IMG/VR virus record: IMGVR_UViG_3300011429_000001
Coordinates: 15,962 to 79,961 of that record
Source: a virus
Length of the DNA stretch: 64,000 nt
Strand: one strand, 5' to 3'
The notes under the pieces: generated by a model
Told to the model about the DNA's origin: nothing
Databases searched by the model: none
What the model saw: only the letters and a program-made list of their open reading frames with translations
Shown: in pieces, positions 15,042 through 55,599 of the stretch
How the letters are laid out: each line of letters begins with the position of its first letter
How positions within the stretch are numbered: the first letter of the stretch is position 1
Translations under genes and position numbers: made by a program

Positions 15042-16064
15042 CTAGACCGTGTTACCGGTCACGATGCCCGACTGGTCGGTGTAGGTCGTCTTCACGCGCG
15101 GGATAATGCACGCGAGAACGATCCAGTTCATCCCGAGACCGCCGTCCTGATCCCACGAAATAACCGTGGGCTCCTGACCGACGACGAGATCGATAACGTC
15201 GCTCGTGCGCTGCACGAGGACGGTGCGGTTCGCCGGGAGCATATCGGCCGAGCGGACGCGGAGCGTCTGGCCGCCGAACGACATCTGCTCCAGACGCTGA
15301 CGGATGGTCGTCGGGAACGTCGTGACGCCGTCCGTCCAGTTGCGGTTCAGGATCAGGTCGTAGGCCGTGTTCACGTAGAGCGTGTACGGGCCGAACTTCC
15401 TGTCGCCGACCGCGAGCGCGACCATCGCGAGAACGTCGTCGACGATCTCTTGACCGGTCTTGCCCGCCGCGTTCCACGCCTCGCCGCCCGCGTACTGATA
15501 CGCGTTGACGTTCGGCGCGTTCAGCAAGCCCGGGACCGAGCTGCCGAAGACCGGCGTCGGGATGCCGTTGATCGCGGCGTCTTCGATCGCCTCGTTCACG
15601 CGGCGCGTCGCGACCTCGATGAGCGTCGTGTCGAGCGGAACGCCGCCGCCACGCTGGCTCGCCGAGAGGGTGCGGATGCCGAGCTCGAAGCTGTCCCACG
15701 TCAGGTAGACGGGGAGGATCTTCGCACGTCGGTCAACGATGAAGTTCTCGCCGCGGGCGCGAGGCTCCATCGTGCGCTTCGCGCCACCGGCCTCGTTCTG
15801 CTCGTCCCACTGCACCTGCGTGGTGCCCCAGAACGACTGGCCGATGTCGTACGTGAGTCCGTCGCTCATCAAATCGGCGACGACGGAGAGTCGATCGAGA
15901 CCGACCTTGAGGACGGTATCGTCGATCAACTTCTGCGCGTTCTCCGGCAGTGGACGCAAGGCGCGGAACTGCTGGACCGTGAGCTTGCCCTCCACCAGCA
16001 GGCGAAGCGCGGGAGGCGCCCCTGCGGGGAGCGGCTGTCCGATGCTTACAAGGTTCCTCGACAT
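15042..16064 (-). CDS. Major capsid protein, HK97 fold, encapsulin/Linocin-M18-like
   Basis: PLDTTLIEVATRRVNEAIEDAAING...GLLNAP...FGPYTLYV; AGGAGG RBS. Confidence 0.9.
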   Translation of the reverse strand: MSRNLVSIGQPLPAGAPPALRLLVEGKLTVQQFRALRPLPENAQKLIDDTVLKVGLDRLSVVADLMSDGLTYDIGQSFWGTTQVQWDEQNEAGGAKRTMEPRARGENFIVDRRAKILPVYLTWDSFELGIRTLSASQRGGGVPLDTTLIEVATRRVNEAIEDAAINGIPTPVFGSSVPGLLNAPNVNAYQYAGGEAWNAAGKTGQEIVDDVLAMVALAVGDRKFGPYTLYVNTAYDLILNRNWTDGVTTFPTTIRQRLEQMSFGGQTLRVRSADMLPANRTVLVQRTSDVIDLVVGQEPTVISWDQDGGLGMNWIVLACIIPRVKTTYTDQSGIVTGNTV

Positions 16065-38556: not shown

Positions 38557-38765
38557 GCGCCGTCCTCCTTCAGCGCCGGGTCGACGGCGTTCCACGCGCC
38601 TATGAACGCTTCGAGGAGTTCGATCGGGACGTAGACCTCCTCGCGTCGACCGCGGCCTTCGCGGTTCGGGCCGACCTCGATCGCGATGTGCGCGCTCCCG
38701 GTCTCGCAGTAGCGGATCGTCGTCGTCGTCGCGCCGACGACGCACGACTTCTCGATCGTAATCAC
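38553..38765 (-). CDS. Hypothetical protein
   Basis: 70 aa with GGAGGAG RBS. Confidence 0.6.
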   Translation of the reverse strand: MITIEKSCVVGATTTTIRYCETGSAHIAIEVGPNREGRGRREEVYVPIELLEAFIGAWNAVDPALKEDGA

Positions 38766-39295
38766 ATCTCCTCCAGTGGCGTATCATACGCGAGTCGGCT
38801 CGGGTGCCGCGGCCGACCGTCGGCCGTCTTCCCGAGGCACTTGACGTTGCCCTTCCGGAGGTTCCGGAGGAGCGACAAGACCTCGCCGTCGCGCCCGGCG
38901 GTCCACCCGGTTCCCCACGCGACGACGACGGTCGCGAGCGGCGGCGCGCTACAGGCCCACGCGATGTGCTCGTCGTTCATCGTGCCGACGACGTCGGACC
39001 GGGCCCACGTCGCGAGCTTCCGCCGGAGCTCGTTCGGGTCGGTCGCGCGGAGGGCGAAGAGGTTGACGAGGATCACGCCGCCGTGCCGGTGCCGCTTCGC
39101 GAAGCCGATCGTCTTCGCCAGCGTGAGGTCAGAGCGCGTCGCGTCGGCGACGCTCGGGTTCATCCCGCAGAAGACCATTACCGGCAGCGAGAGGTCCCAC
39201 ATCCGGTGGAGGCGGTAGCGGTAGAGGCCGCACGTCGAGACGATCGCTCCGGCCTTCTGCTCCGCCGTCAAGGGCGCGTCGAGCTCGAACATCAC
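38762..39295 (-). CDS. DUF1643 family protein
   Basis: CGLYRYRLHRMW...MNPSVAD...VNLFALRATDP...VVAWG...PRHP. Confidence 0.85.
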   Translation of the reverse strand: MMFELDAPLTAEQKAGAIVSTCGLYRYRLHRMWDLSLPVMVFCGMNPSVADATRSDLTLAKTIGFAKRHRHGGVILVNLFALRATDPNELRRKLATWARSDVVGTMNDEHIAWACSAPPLATVVVAWGTGWTAGRDGEVLSLLRNLRKGNVKCLGKTADGRPRHPSRLAYDTPLEEM

Positions 39296-39537
39296 GAGAC
39301 CGTCGGCCGGAGGAACTTCACCTGAAGCATGACCATCTTCTGGTCGACGCTGCGCTGGACGACCGGACAGACTGTATCGTCCCTCGTATCGAACCGATAC
39401 TCTGCGCCGCAGGTCAGGCAGTTGATGCCGGAGATGGCGAGGACGTTCGCGCTGAGGTCTTCGAGCGCGGCGATCTTCCAATCGAACTGGAGCTTGGGCT
39501 CGTGGCAGCAGTAGCCCGGGATCGGTTCCTTCGTCAT
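39292..39537 (-). CDS. Small Cys-rich hypothetical protein
   Basis: CCH...CLTC. Confidence 0.55.
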   Translation of the reverse strand: MTKEPIPGYCCHEPKLQFDWKIAALEDLSANVLAISGINCLTCGAEYRFDTRDDTVCPVVQRSVDQKMVMLQVKFLRPTVS

Positions 39538-46536: not shown

Positions 46537-46758
46537 TCACTCTACGTTGATGTTCTCCGCGCGCGGTCCCTTGGCTCCGTGGCCGGACTCGTAGGTGACG
46601 CGGTCGCCTTCGTTGACGTCGCTGAAGGTCGCGTTCTGAAGCGCGGTGTGATGGAAGAAGATCTCGTCGCCGCCGCCCTCCGGCTCGATGAAGCCGAAGC
46701 CCTTCCGCTTACCGGTTGCCTTGTCGACGACGATGGTCTTGATCTTGCCTGCTGCCAT
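46537..46758 (-). CDS. cspA: Cold-shock domain protein
   Basis: KGFGFI (RNP1), IFFHHTAL (RNP2), EGDRVTYE...KGPRAENI. Confidence 0.95.
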   Translation of the reverse strand: MAAGKIKTIVVDKATGKRKGFGFIEPEGGGDEIFFHHTALQNATFSDVNEGDRVTYESGHGAKGPRAENINVE

Positions 46759-48197: not shown

Positions 48198-48529
48198 TCG
48201 ATGATCTCCGGTGCGCGTTTCCGCGGGCGCCAAATGTGGAGCTCGCGTCGACAATGCTTCGACCACTTCACTTCGCCGAACGCCTTCTCTGCGTCCTTTA
48301 TCAGCGTCGCCGTCGGCTTGCCTCCGCCCTTCGTCTGGACGAAGACCGGTACGTCGACCGCGAGGTAGAGGAGGTCGCTGCCGAATTGATCCTTCTTCGT
48401 CGTGAAGACGCCGTTCGGCGTGTGGTTCGTTCGGACGATCTCCATGTCGGCGACCGGGTGGCCGCGTTCGAGGAGCCAGTCCTTGCTTCGCTTCTTGTAG
48501 TAGGCGCCGCGCGAGGAGTTGCTCGACAC
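48176..48529 (-). CDS. PD-(D/E)xK nuclease, Holliday-junction-resolvase-like
   Basis: RGAYY...WL...DQFGSDLL...FVQTK. Confidence 0.7.
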   Translation of the reverse strand: MSSNSSRGAYYKKRSKDWLLERGHPVADMEIVRTNHTPNGVFTTKKDQFGSDLLYLAVDVPVFVQTKGGGKPTATLIKDAEKAFGEVKWSKHCRRELHIWRPRKRAPEIIEWPTQQK

Positions 48530-49080
48530 TACAACCCCCTGCGCTTCCAGTCGGCGGCGATCTCGTACGCGCCGACCGGCGGCCGACCGAGCGGGCCGCG
48601 CGCAAACACCGATCGTCGAGCTCGACGCACGGCGCCGCGCATAAAGCGGCGCGCCCTAGCGACGTTCGTCGGGTCGTTATACCAGCGATTGATGCCGGAC
48701 GGATGCGGCATCACGACGACGTCGGCCGCGCCGATGCGCCGCTTCGCGAAGTAGACGTCGCGCACGCCGAACGCCGCGGCGGTCCGGTGCCCGAGCAGGA
48801 TGACGAGACGGCCGCGCACGAACTTCGTCGCGAGCCGCTCTGCACCGCGCCTAGCCTCGACCATCGGGAACTGCGCGCCCTTCGAGGCGCCGGGACCGGG
48901 CCACGCGTCGAGCACGTTGGCGCGGGCGAAGAGGCGAAGGAACTCTGTGATGTCGACGCCGCCGAGCGCGGCGAGGATCGACCCGCAGCGACCATCGATC
49001 GGACGGTTCAGCATGCCGGTGCGGTTCGGCGCCTCGCCGATGACGAGCGGGCGCGGCTCAGATTGGGACGGCGTTCGCAT
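48529..49080 (-). CDS. Uracil-DNA glycosylase superfamily protein
   Basis: VIGEAP (motif A), ILLG, MPHPSG (motif B). Confidence 0.82.
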   Translation of the reverse strand: MRTPSQSEPRPLVIGEAPNRTGMLNRPIDGRCGSILAALGGVDITEFLRLFARANVLDAWPGPGASKGAQFPMVEARRGAERLATKFVRGRLVILLGHRTAAAFGVRDVYFAKRRIGAADVVVMPHPSGINRWYNDPTNVARARRFMRGAVRRARRSVFARGPLGRPPVGAYEIAADWKRRGL

Positions 49081-50434
49081 CGCGTTCGAGCTCCATGCCG
49101 AAGTTGTCGATCTCGTCGCGGACGACGAGGTCAGGTCGCGGAATAAGTTTATTGGATCTGAATCCAGAGTAGTCGACGTGATGATGCCACCGTCCCCACT
49201 TCTCGACGAGCGTCGAGATGTCCGGGTGGAGCTTCACTTGCATCTGCGACTTCGGGAGCGTGCCCTCGTGCGCGTAGAACTCCGCGGTGTTCCCGCCGCC
49301 GAGGACCTGCGTCGTCGTCTTCATCTGAAGGAACGAGTTGAACTGCACCGTCACGAGACCGGCTCGAAGCATCCGGATGGAGAGGTCGGTGTCTTCGTTG
49401 TAGCGCGCGCGCCACCGATAGGGGAGGTCGTTCCGAATGAGGTTGCACGAATAGATGCGCGTGTTGAGGACGAGCGGCGGCATGATCGTCTTCCGGCTCG
49501 CGAACATAAAGTAGTTCGGCCCGGCCATGCCGACGTTTGTATAGCGGTCGACGAACGCCTCCATGCATCGGAAGATCGCGCCGGTCACGCAGGGCGTCTT
49601 CAGGTTCTGATAGAGGCGGTAGAAGCCGTCGATGTTGTCGTCCATTACCCAGTGCCACCGCGCGCCGCTCGCAATCGCGTGGTCCCAGACGAAGTTGCGC
49701 GCCGGGCCTGGGCCCTTCCCCTTCGTGCTTCCGAGGTCGTCGCACGTGTCGTATTCGTCCTGATAGGTTGTGTCGAGGACGAGCAGCGTCGCCGTCGAGT
49801 CGACGGCCGCCGCGTATTGGTCGAGCTCCTGCGCCTCCACGACGATGTAGTGCGGGACGCCCATTGCGTGAAGCGACTTGCTGGTGAGTCGACTCTCCCA
49901 TCGTCCTTTCGAGACGATGTAGATCGGGTGCATCGGAACGACCGGCGCGCCGCGGACGACGAACCGCTTGTCGACCATCGAGGCGATCTCCGCTTTCGGA
50001 TACCAGAGGGAGCGCGTCCGGTCGGTGATCGTCTGACCGATCAGGGCCGCGAACGCGTCGCGACCGGCGTCGTCCTTGAAGTGCACGGACAAGCTCTGCT
50101 TCGGCGTCAGGTCGCGTTGCTCGAACTCCGGCATCCCGCGCCAGAGATCCTTCCATCGAGGTTCGAGGTCTCCGAAGAGGGAGACCTGCCCGTCGCCGAC
50201 GTCCTCCGTCTCGACGCCGCCGAGCCAACTCGACTCGGCGGCTTCTGGTTGCTCGGTCGGCGACGGCTCGGCGACCGCGTCGATCGGCGCATCGTCAGAT
50301 CGCTCTTCCTGCTCGCGTTGCTCTTGCCGCTCCTCGATGACCTCGACGACCGCGGGCGGGATGACCGGCGCGACCGACGCGTCATTGACGTCGAGAAACG
50401 AGAGCAGAGGTTGATCGGTAATGCGCTTCTTCAC
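49058..50434 (-). CDS. TAGT/GREB1-like DNA base glycosyltransferase with fused WxGMPEF N-domain
   Basis: PIYIVSKGR...IVVE..E...Y; GPARN..W; WVMDDNI; YNEDTDLS; HHHVDY. Confidence 0.78.
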   Translation of the reverse strand: MKKRITDQPLLSFLDVNDASVAPVIPPAVVEVIEERQEQREQEERSDDAPIDAVAEPSPTEQPEAAESSWLGGVETEDVGDGQVSLFGDLEPRWKDLWRGMPEFEQRDLTPKQSLSVHFKDDAGRDAFAALIGQTITDRTRSLWYPKAEIASMVDKRFVVRGAPVVPMHPIYIVSKGRWESRLTSKSLHAMGVPHYIVVEAQELDQYAAAVDSTATLLVLDTTYQDEYDTCDDLGSTKGKGPGPARNFVWDHAIASGARWHWVMDDNIDGFYRLYQNLKTPCVTGAIFRCMEAFVDRYTNVGMAGPNYFMFASRKTIMPPLVLNTRIYSCNLIRNDLPYRWRARYNEDTDLSIRMLRAGLVTVQFNSFLQMKTTTQVLGGGNTAEFYAHEGTLPKSQMQVKLHPDISTLVEKWGRWHHHVDYSGFRSNKLIPRPDLVVRDEIDNFGMELERDANAVPI

Positions 50435-50450
50435 TGGTGGCCTCGCGCGG

Positions 50451-51008
50451 TTAGAGGAGCTTCGCCCGCAAGTACGCGACCATCGCGTCGCGGCACTTCA
50501 ACGTGTCCTTCTGATCGAGGTTCGCCGGTTGAAGCCGCGCGTAGAAGCCGTCGGCGAAGTAGACGTTGATGTAGCGGTTCTTCTCCTCGGACCGCACGTC
50601 GACGATCTTAAGCTTCGTCGCGTCGTCCGGGAACGCGGTCAGCGAGAACGTCGTGCCCTCGTCGCCGGTCGGTGCGGCAGCCGCCTTCCGACGCGTCGTC
50701 GTCGGCCGAGCCGCGCTCCGCTTCGCCTTCTTCGCCGCCGACTTCTTCGCCTTTCGTCCGCTGGTCTTGCGTGATCGCTTTGCCTTTGCCATTGCTTCTC
50801 CTTCTAGTGGTGCTGCTACTTCTGTTGACGTGTCTTGCGCTACCGGCGGTGTCGCTTCTCCCGCGTCGACCGGCCTCGACTCGGGCTCGCCCATCGTCTC
50901 GTCTTCTGTCTTTGGTGTCGTCACTTTCCGTCCCTCCGGCTTCCTCGACCGCCGAGCCTTTGCGATCTCGTCGGCGATCCGTTGCATCTCTTGGGCGATC
51001 CTACTCAT
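50451..51008 (-). CDS. Hypothetical protein with basic histone-H1-like linker
   Basis: KAKRSRKTSGRKAKKSAAKKAKR; internal AAGGAG-ATG at about 50791. Confidence 0.65.
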   Translation of the reverse strand: MSRIAQEMQRIADEIAKARRSRKPEGRKVTTPKTEDETMGEPESRPVDAGEATPPVAQDTSTEVAAPLEGEAMAKAKRSRKTSGRKAKKSAAKKAKRSAARPTTTRRKAAAAPTGDEGTTFSLTAFPDDATKLKIVDVRSEEKNRYINVYFADGFYARLQPANLDQKDTLKCRDAMVAYLRAKLL

Positions 51009-51009
51009 G

Positions 51010-51594
51010 TCATGCTCCGCGCTCGGAGGTGGTGTAGCCTTCGGCCTCCAGCCGCTTCTGTAGCTTCGTTCGATCGGCGTCGCTCTTACACTTCACCATC
51101 AGCCAATAAGAGAGCTCGGCGCCGGAGCCCTCCGCCTTGAGGTTGGCCTTTAGCTTCGAGACGGTCCACGGCTCGGCGCCGTCTCCGGCCGCCGCCTTGT
51201 CGAGCCACTTCGATTGCTCGCGCGGCGGGAGCTTCGCGACCGCCTGATGGTGCGAGTAGGTTAACTCCTCCATGTGCCGGACTTCCATCGGCACCTTCTC
51301 GGCCGCCCACTCGTAGGCGCGCACCGTCTCGTGCGACCAGCCGGTCGCGGCAGTGATGATCTGGTCGGCCTTCTCGCCCCACCGCTCGCGGAGATACTTC
51401 GCCATGTCGCCGATACCGAACTGGATACCCTTCTCCATCGAGCGGAGCTGCTTCCAGCCCTCGTTGCATTCTGAGTAGTCCGGCTCGCCTCGCACGATGA
51501 GGCCGTGCGGCGTAAGCGTGAAGTGCTTCGTTACGAGGACCGGCGCGAAGTCCGGGCCGATACGTTGCAGTTGCTCGGTCGACTGATTCGTCAT
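51010..51594 (-). CDS. LmbU-like DNA-binding protein
   Basis: FGIGD...TGWSHETVRAYEW...LTYSHHQAVA...EQSKWL...WTVSKL. Confidence 0.65.
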   Translation of the reverse strand: MTNQSTEQLQRIGPDFAPVLVTKHFTLTPHGLIVRGEPDYSECNEGWKQLRSMEKGIQFGIGDMAKYLRERWGEKADQIITAATGWSHETVRAYEWAAEKVPMEVRHMEELTYSHHQAVAKLPPREQSKWLDKAAAGDGAEPWTVSKLKANLKAEGSGAELSYWLMVKCKSDADRTKLQKRLEAEGYTTSERGA

Positions 51595-52205
51595 TGTGCG
51601 CGCTCGAAGATGGATAGCAAACGGATTCGATGATTTGTGGACCGTTGAATATAGATCATTCCGACGGTGGCCCATTGATCCTTTCGATGCATCGGCCACT
51701 GCGTATCGAGCCAGCAGAGAAGCGCGCCCGGCGTCGCGACCCGCGCGAGTCCGGCGAGCGCGCGGCGTCGGTTCGGCGGCGGCGATTGATACTTCTTCGA
51801 GTCTGCCGTCGAGTAGGGCGTGTCGGCCACGACGAGCTCGAACGGCTCGACGTCGTCCGGGATCGACGCGACGTCGCACTTGAGCTCCGCGTCCTTGACG
51901 ACGTCGCAGCGCGTGTATGGTCCGGGCGGGAGGCTCCCGCTGAAGGCGTGCAGGACGCGACCGCCGAGCGGCAGCATGCCGGTAATGAGCGGGTAGTCGG
52001 GAAACATCGCCTGAAGCCGTTCGAGGTAGTTGCCGGGATACGCGCCATAGTAGTCGCTCTTGTTCCTGTAGTCCTGCCCGAACATCCAGATGCCCTGCAG
52101 CGTCTCTCGGCCCTCGGCGCCGACGAGAACCTGTAGGTGGCTCCCCTTGAACTCCGGGAAGACGCGCGCGTAGTTCTCCGCCCGCTCGCGCAGCGAGAGC
52201 TTCAC
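51591..52205 (-). CDS. Putative amino-methyltransferase (DTPY variant)
   Basis: LHAFSG SAM-binding motif; VVADTPY in place of DPPY. Confidence 0.65.
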   Translation of the reverse strand: MKLSLRERAENYARVFPEFKGSHLQVLVGAEGRETLQGIWMFGQDYRNKSDYYGAYPGNYLERLQAMFPDYPLITGMLPLGGRVLHAFSGSLPPGPYTRCDVVKDAELKCDVASIPDDVEPFELVVADTPYSTADSKKYQSPPPNRRRALAGLARVATPGALLCWLDTQWPMHRKDQWATVGMIYIQRSTNHRIRLLSIFERAQ

Positions 52206-52924
52206 GCAACCCCCAAGTCGAACGCGATCTGTTTGCCGCGGCGGCCCGGAACGCGGGCCATCCGCTCGTCGAGCTCAGTCTGTTGAAGGCGCCGCGCCGC
52301 GTCCTCGCACTTCTTCTCGTCGATCTCGACGAGGAGCGCGCGTCGGCCGCACATCTTCGCCGCGACGCCGGTCGTACCTGACCCGGCGAAGAAGTCGGCG
52401 ATGAGCTCGTCGACGTCGGTGAAGTCGCGCACAAGTTGGAGCATCAGCGAGACCGGCTTCTGCGTCTCGTGGACCCGATCGTCGCCCTTAACGATCGGCG
52501 CTCTCCACTTCCCCATCTTCCCGTTGCCGTTCCATCGCTTAACGCCGTCCGGGTGCCAGATGGCGATGCCCTCGGCGCCCTGCGCCGGGCGGTCGCCGGA
52601 GATTTGCGGCGTGCCGCCGTCGCGGTCCCAGACGCCGGACCGGATCCATCGGTCGCCGGTAAGGCGCTTGTAGTCTCCGAGCATTTCGAGCGCGCAGAAC
52701 GCGAGCGCCCAACGGCGCGGCTTCACGATCGCGACGACGTCGGCCGGGTCGATCGGCGCGAAACCGATCTTGAAGCCCTTCGAGTTCGACCTCGCACCGT
52801 CGTGCGTCTTCTCGTCGTACGGCGGGTCACCGATGAAGTGGTCGTAGTTGTAGAGCGACGGCGCGAGCTCGCGCGAGTCGCCGAGATACAACGTGACCGC
52901 GTCGTCGGCGTAGTAGGGCGTCAC
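52202..52924 (-). CDS. DNA N6-adenine/N4-cytosine methyltransferase (beta class)
   Basis: DPPY, HETQKP, DFFAGSGTT. Confidence 0.92.
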   Translation of the reverse strand: MTPYYADDAVTLYLGDSRELAPSLYNYDHFIGDPPYDEKTHDGARSNSKGFKIGFAPIDPADVVAIVKPRRWALAFCALEMLGDYKRLTGDRWIRSGVWDRDGGTPQISGDRPAQGAEGIAIWHPDGVKRWNGNGKMGKWRAPIVKGDDRVHETQKPVSLMLQLVRDFTDVDELIADFFAGSGTTGVAAKMCGRRALLVEIDEKKCEDAARRLQQTELDERMARVPGRRGKQIAFDLGVA

Positions 52925-53835: not shown

Positions 53836-54496
53836 GCTTCTCCTCCTCCTGCGTTACCGGCGGCAACTGCCGCTGGGCCTTCCCGTCGAGTCGACCGACC
53901 GCGACCTCGAACGCCGCGCGCACTTCGCCGCGGGCCGAGACGACGCCGATCGCGATGTTCGGCCGCCGCTCGTAGCGCCCGGCGCCACCTTCGAGCAAGC
54001 CGCGGAGCCGCGCCGGTTCGACGACGACGAGCGTCGAGTCTTGCGCCTGCCGCCGCAGATCGCGGTACGCCGCGAGGAACTGCTGGCGCTTCAGCGCGAG
54101 CTCCGGTCCCGGTTCCTGCGCGCACCAGTTCGGCCACGAGCCGAAGACTTGAAGCAACGCCGCGGCGGCGACAGTGTCCTCGAACTCGATCGATTGGTAG
54201 GCGCCGATCTTCATCGCCGCCGTTTCCATACTCGTCCACGCGAGCAGCGCCTCGTCGTCCGGCGTCGGCATCAACTGTCGCCGGATCTCGGCGACGCTCG
54301 GGAAGAACCCGCTGCCCTCGCGACGGACGCGCCGGAAGGCAGCGATCACCTGTTCGGCCGGGAGGTCGGCGAGGTCCGCGGCGTAGATGCGGATGCGCGC
54401 CTCGGTCAGCTTCGCGCCGCACGCTTCCGCGGCTTCGAGGATGATGCGCCCGAACCATTCGGAGACGTTGCCGTCTCGGTCTACGCTGCTCGTCAT
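53693..54496 (-). CDS. Helicase loader/inhibitor-like protein (DUF6475-like)
   Basis: IYAADLADL...FFPSVAEI...GAYQSIEFED...FGSWPNWC...FLAAY. Confidence 0.7.
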   Translation of the reverse strand: MTSSVDRDGNVSEWFGRIILEAAEACGAKLTEARIRIYAADLADLPAEQVIAAFRRVRREGSGFFPSVAEIRRQLMPTPDDEALLAWTSMETAAMKIGAYQSIEFEDTVAAAALLQVFGSWPNWCAQEPGPELALKRQQFLAAYRDLRRQAQDSTLVVVEPARLRGLLEGGAGRYERRPNIAIGVVSARGEVRAAFEVAVGRLDGKAQRQLPPVTQEEEKHGEEGGQRGPTRHGGSRDQRSRKGRAQVRQDQEGAHEVDRRGGRGEG

Positions 54497-55599
54497 ACCC
54501 GCATCGGCATCAGGATATAGCTGTAGTCGTAGCCCTCGGTGCCGACGGCCTTGAAGAGCGCCTGACTGACTTCGTCCTTGAGCTCGACCGAGATCTTCTC
54601 GCCGTCGACGGCCGCGAGGAAGTCCTGCAAATACTTCGCGTTGAACTTCATCGTCAACGGCGCGCCGTCGTATTCGGCGGCGACGCTGTCCGCCGCTTCG
54701 CCCGACTCGGCGTTCACGCAGTTGATGCCCACCTTCCCCTTTTCGAGCGCGAACTCGACGGCGCGGCTCCGGCTGTCGGCCATGATCGCGACGCGGCTCA
54801 CCGCCGCTTGCAGTGGCTCGCGCGCGATGGTGACGCGCTTGTCGTGTCCCTTCGGAATGATCTTGTCGTAGGCCGGGAACTGCGCGTCGATGACGCGCGA
54901 GATCAAGAGGCGCGGACCGCAGTTGAAGAACAGGTGATTCTCGCCGCGCTTGAACGTGACGTCTGGACCGTCGCCGTCGAGCATCGAGGCGAGCTCCTTC
55001 AACGTCGCCGCCGGAAGGATCGCCGTGCCGTCCTCTCCGGCGAGCGGCCCGACGACGTGGGTCAACCGGTGCCCGTCCGTCGCCGCCATCGTCGCCATGC
55101 CGTTCGCGAAGGCCAGCTGCGACCCGGCGAGGTAGAACCGCGTGTCGTCGGCGGAGAGGGAGAACCGCGTCTTGCGAACCATCTCGCGGAGAAGCGCGCG
55201 CGGCATCGTGATGCCGCCGTCGACCGGTTCCTCGGCGAGCGTCGGGAAGTCGGCGGCTGGAAGCACGTTCAGCTTCGAGACGAAGCCGCCGCACGCGACC
55301 TTCGCCGTACCCTTGCCGTCGAACTCGATCGTCACTTCCTCGCCAGACGGGAGCGCCTGCACGATCTGGTAGAGCTTCTCGGCCGGGAGTAGGACGGCGC
55401 CGTCTGCGACGTCCCACGACACGAGGTCGAACGTGCTTCGCATCGCGATGTTGAGGTCCGTCGCCGAGAGGCGGCAGCCCTGACCCTCGCGCGTCAGCAA
55501 GACGTACGCGAGCGTCGGGATGGTTGACTTGCGACTCGCGACTCCTTGAACGGCGTGCAGCTGTTGCTGAAGCACCGACCTATCGAACTGCAACTTCAT
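54493..55599 (-). CDS. dnaN: DNA polymerase III beta sliding clamp
   Basis: SATDL, ATDGHRL, FPAY..IIP, FNAKYL.D, C-terminal MPMR. Confidence 0.96.
   Translation of the reverse strand: MKLQFDRSVLQQQLHAVQGVASRKSTIPTLAYVLLTREGQGCRLSATDLNIAMRSTFDLVSWDVADGAVLLPAEKLYQIVQALPSGEEVTIEFDGKGTAKVACGGFVSKLNVLPAADFPTLAEEPVDGGITMPRALLREMVRKTRFSLSADDTRFYLAGSQLAFANGMATMAATDGHRLTHVVGPLAGEDGTAILPAATLKELASMLDGDGPDVTFKRGENHLFFNCGPRLLISRVIDAQFPAYDKIIPKGHDKRVTIAREPLQAAVSRVAIMADSRSRAVEFALEKGKVGINCVNAESGEAADSVAAEYDGAPLTMKFNAKYLQDFLAAVDGEKISVELKDEVSQALFKAVGTEGYDYSYILMPMRV

Follow-up and report, generated by a model that had tools for sequence, protein, structure and literature searches.

An adaptor-fused TAGT glycosyltransferase in a phage replication module as a candidate DNA-tethered enzyme

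The stretch of DNA analysed here (the window, 64,000 nucleotides, positions 15,962 to 79,961 of IMG/VR virus record IMGVR_UViG_3300011429_000001) is taken from a complete viral genome (100,629 bp), which carries direct terminal repeats and is rated 100% complete by CheckV. The G+C content of the window DNA is about 65% and nearly all genes lie on the minus strand. Between 46.8 and 52.9 kb there is a contiguous row of minus-strand genes whose stops and starts overlap or abut (Table 1); beside the helicase gene dnaB it includes a TAGT-like glycosyltransferase, a UDG-superfamily protein, an LmbU-like protein and two amino-methyltransferases. An earlier note, made from the sequence of this DNA, proposed that these last five genes form one DNA hypermodification module. 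Profile matches and coordinates bear out that the genes are present and contiguous beside dnaB. We found that the glycosyltransferase represents a phage system that is widespread and has two parts, an adaptor domain and a TAGT core, in the window fused and without ParB, and that its neighbours do not recur with it. Megablast of the region against cultured phages gave no match.

The glycosyltransferase is a true TAGT-family GT-A enzyme with intact catalytic motifs, which agrees with the identity given in the earlier note. It matches PF20691 over profile positions 2-205 of 205 (E-value 5.5e-42; 144.5 bits with a cut-off of 27.5) and phrog_842 (E-value 2.7e-46), and its AlphaFold2 model is confident, with a predicted local distance difference test (pLDDT) score above 90 in the core. 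The chain begins with an acidic tail (residues 1-92) containing the peptide QVSLF at residues 83-87, continues with the adaptor (about 93-160) and ends with the GT-A TAGT core (about 166-450). The core motifs R246, D265-D266-N267 and E347-D348-T are invariant among 40 aligned sequences, and the alignment of the enzyme (A1) has 60 invariant columns. With respect to the published active-site pattern R...DDD...ED(Y/F) (Pyle et al.), the third residues differ, being N instead of D and T instead of Y/F. The model matches GT-A folds including GnT-I, ColGalT1 and GpgS; the closest viral structures are TAGT-domain proteins, and among solved structures the closest are mostly GT-A enzymes directed at proteins or glycans. 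Sequence searches of PDB, with the single sequence and with a profile, returned no useful match. The best cultured relatives (43-53% identity) belong to the giant Aeromonas phages Aeh1, 65 and phiAS5, to Tenacibaculum phage PTm1 and to several Vibrio phages, and no T-even/Tequatrovirus match was obtained by tblastn at an E-value of 1e-5 among 50,697 phage records.

The adaptor, which is fused in frame before the core, is a domain of about 65 amino acids with the pattern W.GMPEF...HF...F..L.GQ..T..T..WFP, and residues 93-159 of the enzyme match a profile of the proteins encoded upstream of related glycosyltransferases with an E-value of 1.1e-25. When its arrangement was scored at 132 glycosyltransferase genes, the adaptor was found most often as the C-terminal tail of a separate, long-headed upstream protein (85 genes), and otherwise as a short stand-alone protein (14) or fused to the core as in the window (12); it was undetected at 14 genes, and a further 7 lay at contig edges. 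Where a long-headed upstream protein bears the adaptor, it and the glycosyltransferase are read in different frames, from genes that overlap or are separated by a few bases. It is the adaptor domain, whether or not it carries a ParB-fold head, that is truly conserved beside the glycosyltransferase, and the earlier note overlooked it.

The long head of the upstream proteins has a ParB/Srx fold. A profile of 38 of them matched the N-terminal domains of Noc, ParB and Spo0J (E-value 1.7e-11), and the AlphaFold2 model of the head (pLDDT 89) aligned to pNOB8 ParB-N with a Z-score of 12.1, and also to KorB and sulfiredoxin. The assignment is based on profile and structure because Pfam gave nothing at an E-value up to 1 for the ParB-adaptor protein of locus L005. 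Fused adaptor-glycosyltransferase forms never carry a ParB head, some of them have two copies of the adaptor, and all 16 adaptor-bearing proteins of 251-802 amino acids carry PF20691 only. In agreement, the window enzyme has no ParB head, and elsewhere in its genome the best candidate had an E-value of 0.31, which is not significant. In a tree of the cores built with FastTree, the window enzyme groups with the fused forms of loci L001 and L002 (SH-like support 87). Since this trio is nested in a well-supported set of 32 mostly ParB-split rows, the ParB-less form of the window is derived from the ParB-partnered kind.

Some further observations concern these partners. Residues 1-92 of the window enzyme (window 50159-50434, minus strand) are disordered and strongly acidic, with a net charge of -17, and in relatives this place is taken by a ParB head, which is acidic too (median net charge -9.5); the tail may be a functional stand-in for the head or an autoinhibitory DNA mimic. 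A ParB-like protein of the DGQHR type is encoded about 6 kb past the window end and about 20 kb from the glycosyltransferase (L081:6722-7570, minus strand), in a block of lower G+C content; it has neither the adaptor domain nor a Pfam match, and no link to the glycosyltransferase was found. An FkbM-type methyltransferase was discarded as a regular partner, given that FkbM/RfbT-type (sugar O-) methyltransferases occur only beside the fused glycosyltransferase of L002 (5032-5877) and fused to the ParB-adaptor protein of L030 (9449-10972). In those phages the transferred sugar may be methylated.

Relatives of the enzyme are present at no fewer than 591 IMG/VR loci, and the clade comprises 666 clusters at 50% identity scoring an E-value of 1e-30 or better. 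We gathered 21 complete or near-complete genomes with close relatives of the enzyme (50-71% identity), which span 28-102 kb and 31-67% G+C and add up to 22 with the window genome. The glycosyltransferase is the only protein family common to all 22; the next-best family reaches 8 of them, both by blastp clustering and by profile. In the small phages the gene order is ParB-adaptor, glycosyltransferase, terS, terL and portal, and five different terL families are represented beside the cassette. In about 55 of 80 relatives the glycosyltransferase lies within some 1.5 kb upstream of terL. The window enzyme is encoded in the replication module beside dnaB and not directly upstream of terS/terL, and the replication modules of locus L003, Vibrio phage henriette and Vibrio phage 1.124.O hold the gene as well. 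Two tandem TAGT paralogues were observed in the high-GC IMG/VR phage of L003 (6912-9196 and 9790-12153), where their neighbour is a PolA that carries a UDG domain at its N terminus and there is, in addition, a separate UDG-like gene, and in Vibrio phage Kuja (NC_048827.1 30264-32952). In Vibrio phage 1.076.O (MG592452.1 6534-7703, L144) it is flanked by portal and head-morphogenesis genes, away from replication and terminase genes.

Some members of the clade are joined directly to DNA enzymes. A single open reading frame (ORF) of 777 amino acids at L020:1901-4234 (plus strand) encodes a TAGT core (7-215) followed by an SNF2/Helicase_C translocase (322-731), and the small adaptor protein upstream of it carries QSVLF. 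Two cluster representatives of about 1,020 amino acids, P0197 and P0223, are independent fusions of adaptor, TAGT core and a full family-A DNA polymerase (E-values of 5.9e-53 and 7.2e-30 to Pol I, respectively), and P0262 (1,108 amino acids) has a weak PolB-like region. The extra domains of the long representatives P0186, P0137 and P0236 were searched and none was identified.

In ParB-less forms, a peptide of the form Qxx[LM][FL] is found at a constant distance, 14-17 residues before the conserved Trp of the adaptor, as in the window (QVSLF), L001 (QPNLF), L002 (QLDLL), L027 (QLDMF) and L183 (QRCLF), and the peptides of cluster representatives include QLDLF, QLSLF and QLDMF. The consensus for binding to the bacterial beta clamp is QL[SD]LF. 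Such a peptide occurs in 11 of 72 representatives, when 1.8 are expected by shuffling, and in only 1 of 61 ParB-type partners. In the window enzyme it is located in a disordered, low-pLDDT segment of the acidic tail, and it is a candidate docking site for a putative beta clamp that the phage encodes about 4 kb away. In other systems, the T4 alpha-glucosyltransferase co-purifies with the gp45 clamp (PMC13216743) and ParB activates phage thymine dioxygenases on double-stranded DNA (PMC13229309). Because of these precedents, we read ParB, beta clamp, PolA and SNF2 as what may be interchangeable ways to hold the glycosyltransferase on DNA.

The genome does not reveal how an acceptor base would be made. 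In the complete 100,629-bp sequence no match to the thymidylate synthase (TS) family (PF00303) was found, with positive controls that worked, and none to Tet_JBP (PF12851), in a search without positive control. Most of the larger non-structural ORFs, from about 130 amino acids up, were subjected to hmmscan and none of them matched an oxygenase or a nucleotide-metabolism enzyme; the families recognised among them are helicase, nuclease, MoxR/vWA, DUF1643 and similar. The earlier note saw no TET or hydroxymethylase partner in the window and considered the acceptor unexplained, and both statements hold for the complete genome, with the limit just given for TET. Among the virus records of 39 relatives, of which 21 are at least 90% complete, a TS-family gene is present in one (G021), and the TET search, also run without positive control, found none. 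Aeh1 and phage 65 lack gene 42 (PMC2993671). In our TS-family search Aeh1 gave only a td-like match and Vibrio phages 1.076.O and 1.124.O gave none; Kuja (Ackermannviridae) and IMG/VR genome G021 have both this glycosyltransferase and a TS-family gene. No conserved gene, such as a hidden dioxygenase, was found upstream of the cassette.

Several known systems resemble the one described here. The T2/T6 beta-glucosyl-HMC-alpha-glucosyltransferase has the same Pfam family (PF20691) and the same GT-A fold, and it is a phage enzyme that works after replication, on DNA, with a host UDP-sugar. However, the window enzyme is very distant and not an orthologue, with about 11% identity to a T-even-type enzyme in a structural alignment. 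Moreover, the substrate of the T2/T6 enzyme is 5-hydroxymethylcytosine (hmC) that bears a glucose, which the enzyme extends, and it needs gp42 and the alpha-glucosyltransferase, whereas the window genome has no PF00303 match. Neither an adaptor domain nor a ParB partner is described for the T2/T6 enzyme. The phage GT-A enzymes associated with TET/5mYOX and the trypanosome JGT (PMC8256090; 10.1101/2023.12.21.572611) share family, fold and the R...DD(D/N)...ED pattern, and the neighbourhoods of the TET/5mYOX-associated enzymes and of the window clade are both rich in ParB, terminase, polymerase and clamp genes. The former, however, use hmC or 5-hydroxymethyluracil (hmU) provided by a neighbouring dioxygenase, and none was found at the window gene. 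Orphan TAGT enzymes have already been noted in the literature, without explanation: about 65% of glycosyltransferase contigs have no 5mYOX or ThyS neighbour and were set aside as less obviously DNA-modifying (10.1101/2023.12.21.572611), and solitary TAGT homologues occur in 288 of 753 phage genomes (PMC13216743).

Phage thymine dioxygenases (O'Toole 2026, PMC13229309) likewise come in ParB-dependent and ParB-independent forms next to terminase genes, and their ParB-fold partner is dedicated and has no DNA-binding domain. The difference is that the window enzyme is a glycosyltransferase, and that the ParB-fold partner of its relatives ends in an adaptor, which is fused to the enzyme in the ParB-less forms. 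The T4 alpha-glucosyltransferase is a DNA glycosyltransferase coupled to the replisome via the sliding clamp (Sommer 2004; PMC13216743), as we propose for the window enzyme; it has an unrelated GT-B fold and acts on hmC, while in the window it is solely a QxSLF-type peptide that points to the clamp. E. coli W carries a ParB_N protein followed by a PF20691 glycosyltransferase, terS and terL. Because this glycosyltransferase is 23% identical to the window core and the tail of its ParB partner does not match the window adaptor, it constitutes a sister subfamily of the window clade. In the literature we found no description of the adaptor domain, of a ParB-headed glycosyltransferase partner or of the clamp motif.

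The explanation that we favour, although we hold it to be an even call, is that of a DNA-tethered, replication-coupled glycosyltransferase that acts on DNA by chemistry without precedent. A sugar would pass from a host nucleotide-sugar to the phage DNA during or after replication, and the QVSLF peptide that immediately precedes the adaptor would keep the enzyme on DNA by docking on the beta sliding clamp encoded by the phage. The tethering would be the task of the ParB-fold partner in most relatives, and in a few that of a family-A DNA polymerase or an SNF2 translocase to which the enzyme is directly fused. The acceptor would be a canonical base, or some other feature common to all DNA, and not the usual phage-made 5-hydroxymethylpyrimidine. 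The fusions, the ParB-fold partner, the location in replication and packaging regions and the basic TAGT cores (median isoelectric point 9.2; the ParB-adaptor partners are acidic) support DNA as the most likely target, as the earlier note had assumed. In its most specific version, that the clade glycosylates a canonical feature (an exocyclic amine, the backbone or an end position) without prior hydroxymethylation and with interchangeable tethers, the proposal is rather doubtful. A number of points weigh against a DNA-tethered enzyme acting on DNA. We know of no case of DNA glycosylation without a hydroxylated base, and the chemistry would have no precedent. The window core itself, with an isoelectric point of 6.6, is not basic. 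In the model of the fused protein the adaptor has low-confidence pLDDT values (50-77), the clamp-like peptide is a short consensus match from which binding is only predicted, and the TET search in the genome and its relatives had no positive control. The long fusions of metagenomes could be gene-calling errors, although the existence of two PolA fusions that share less than 50% identity speaks against such errors. Finally, GREB1, the animal TAGT homologue, O-GlcNAcylates a DNA-bound protein, the oestrogen receptor (PMC7968844), and therefore tethering to DNA is no proof that DNA is the acceptor.

In this sense, the enzyme could glycosylate a protein that sits on DNA, for example one of the replisome, the nucleoid, the packaging apparatus or a host defence, and the tethers would only bring it to its client. 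We regard this as unlikely. Besides the GREB1 precedent, it would agree with the lack of an acceptor base made by these phages, as far as searched, with the gene position between portal and head-morphogenesis genes in 1.076.O, and with the preference of the closest solved folds for proteins or glycans; however, the characterised phage GT-A relatives found in the literature act on DNA (10.1101/2023.12.21.572611; the T2/T6 enzyme), and a single conserved client is hard to name across 31-67% G+C and many phyla, because no second protein family is common to the 22 genomes. It is quite improbable, in our opinion, that the enzyme belongs to an ordinary hmC/hmU pathway with a hidden first step, in which an unrecognised phage or host enzyme would supply 5-hydroxymethylpyrimidine or 5-hydroxycytosine. 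Such a pathway has precedents within the family (T2/T6 TAGT, the TET-associated GT-A enzymes and JGT) and could be accommodated by the TS-family genes of Kuja and G021, by the many ORFs of the genome without family assignment and by a PF12851 detection that lacked a positive control. Beyond the glycosyltransferase and its adaptor, however, no family is found in more than 8 of the 22 genomes, even by profile; nothing is conserved upstream of the cassette, and the genomes include phages of 28-48 kb with few unassigned genes.

The model of the earlier note, in which a methyltransferase, above all the DTPY enzyme, makes a new base, the glycosyltransferase modifies it and the UDG-like protein reads the modification state, is very improbable. 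In its favour, the genes abut or overlap in one direction of transcription, and Vibrio phage 1.124.O has an N6-adenine methyltransferase two genes from the glycosyltransferase. Also, a DTPY-family methyltransferase (P0020, 53% identical) and a fused glycosyltransferase (P0122, 70% identical over the adaptor) may share one contig, as each lists a longest one of 98,385 bp. However, when the window genes at 38-62 kb were compared with 80 fetched related loci, only the glycosyltransferase recurred throughout: the genes for the UDG-like protein, the DPPY methyltransferase and a small cold-shock-domain protein were each found at 1 locus, and neither the DTPY nor the LmbU-like gene was found at any. 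No TAGT gene occurs within 7 kb of the DTPY-family methyltransferase at any of 22 viral loci, some of these (L199 and L214) keep the order dnaB, DTPY-family and DPPY methyltransferase without a TAGT gene, and the glycosyltransferase clade is present in genomes without any of these neighbours. Neither does the DTPY motif speak for an unusual base. The protein belongs to a family of about 130 small methyltransferase homologues, one of them named RsmD-like by JGI; its motif I is VLHAFSGS, and its motif IV, DTPY, is a variant of the family consensus ADPPYS (alignment A3), of which D, P and Y are invariant, so that the T is a lineage substitution and not a sign of new chemistry. Consequently, neither the single five-gene module nor a novel base made by the DTPY enzyme is retained. 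What stands of the earlier model is the TAGT glycosyltransferase, the missing acceptor pathway and DNA as the likeliest target, and what falls is the tie to the methyltransferases and to the UDG-like and LmbU-like proteins. These four are ordinary, separately inherited tenants of the replication module, and the glycosyltransferase looks like an insertion into its backbone, because the neighbours recur at 1 or none of the loci of its relatives and occur also where TAGT genes do not.

The arms race between phages and the defences based on restriction, CRISPR and DNA glycosylases is shaped by glycosylation of phage DNA, which has also supplied tools for the mapping of epigenetic bases. To our knowledge, every characterised case starts from a hydroxylated pyrimidine. 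The clade described here seems to be bound to DNA machinery by four kinds of tether, in complete genomes without a known route to such a base. Finding its acceptor would uncover either a DNA modification that is new or a pathway to hydroxymethyl bases that has stayed hidden; the alternative outcome is that the targets of a family of 'DNA' glycosyltransferases include, in phages, proteins bound to DNA, as is the case for GREB1 in animals. If direct glycosylation of canonical DNA were true, hundreds of phage lineages, spread over many bacterial phyla, would carry a DNA modification of a new kind. The question is directly testable in cultured carriers, among them Aeh1, Vibrio phages 1.076.O and 1.124.O and a prophage of Pantoea stewartii ATCC 8199.

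Table 1. Genes of the replication block and further features of the window (positions in the window).
Feature	Position	Strand	Matches and remarks
DUF1643 protein	38762-39481	-	E-value 4.9e-32
Cold-shock-domain protein	46537-46758	-	PF00313, E-value 2e-17; just downstream of dnaB
dnaB, DnaB-type replicative helicase	46782..~48100	-	PF03796 (DnaB_C), E-value 7e-75
117-amino-acid ORF	between dnaB and the UDG-superfamily gene	-	
UDG-superfamily protein, small viral, 183 amino acids	48529..49080	-	PF03167, phrog_12275; motifs GEAP and PHPSG
Adaptor-TAGT fusion glycosyltransferase, 458 amino acids	49058..50434	-	PF20691, phrog_842
185-amino-acid Lys/Ala-rich protein	50451..51008	-	between the glycosyltransferase and LmbU-like genes
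LmbU-like putative DNA-binding protein	51010..51621	-	NF038070, E-value 8.6e-15, below the NCBIfam cut-off
'DTPY' small amino-methyltransferase, 204 amino acids	51591..52205	-	phrog_3816, E-value 2.9e-38
Beta-class N6/N4 DNA methyltransferase, 240 amino acids	52202..52924	-	PF01555, E-value 6e-19; DPPY ... FAGSGTT
DnaN-like beta sliding clamp, phage-encoded	54493..55599	-	putative; called from reading the ORF translation

Regarding the neighbours (Table 1), the UDG-like protein scores slightly below the Pfam cut-off for PF03167 (E-value 1e-4; 22.9 bits vs 24.3) and matches phrog_12275 with an E-value of 1.4e-19, with an Atlas score of 0.95 to viral UDG clusters. Its motifs (GE.P and HPS type) are conserved in 4 of 5 relatives, and sequence searches of PDB with the single protein and with a profile found no match. 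With single-protein queries of IMG/VR, the UDG-like protein had 1 close relative and the DTPY protein 0. Among phage replication modules, UDG-like genes are found both where TAGT is present (L003) and where it is missing (L207 and L208), and the window protein is probably a replication or repair accessory, a neighbour and not a demonstrated partner of the glycosyltransferase. The DPPY methyltransferase has CcrM-like NCBIfam matches below the cut-off, the LmbU-like protein has no Pfam match, and the true start of dnaB lies inside the long ORF. Further along the strand from the methyltransferases are the beta clamp ORF, SbcCD-like genes and a helicase; by tblastn, the clamp ORF has only weak similarity (22-24% identity) to stretches in the replication-module loci L201 and L208. 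The DUF1643 protein belongs to a family that we take to be a relative of the UDG superfamily and, if so, the phage would encode two UDG-like proteins. The 185-amino-acid protein that follows the glycosyltransferase has no family match in Pfam, PHROG and NCBIfam profile searches, and it is composed of a basic, histone-H1-like stretch, rich in AKKA and KR, and a C-terminal domain.

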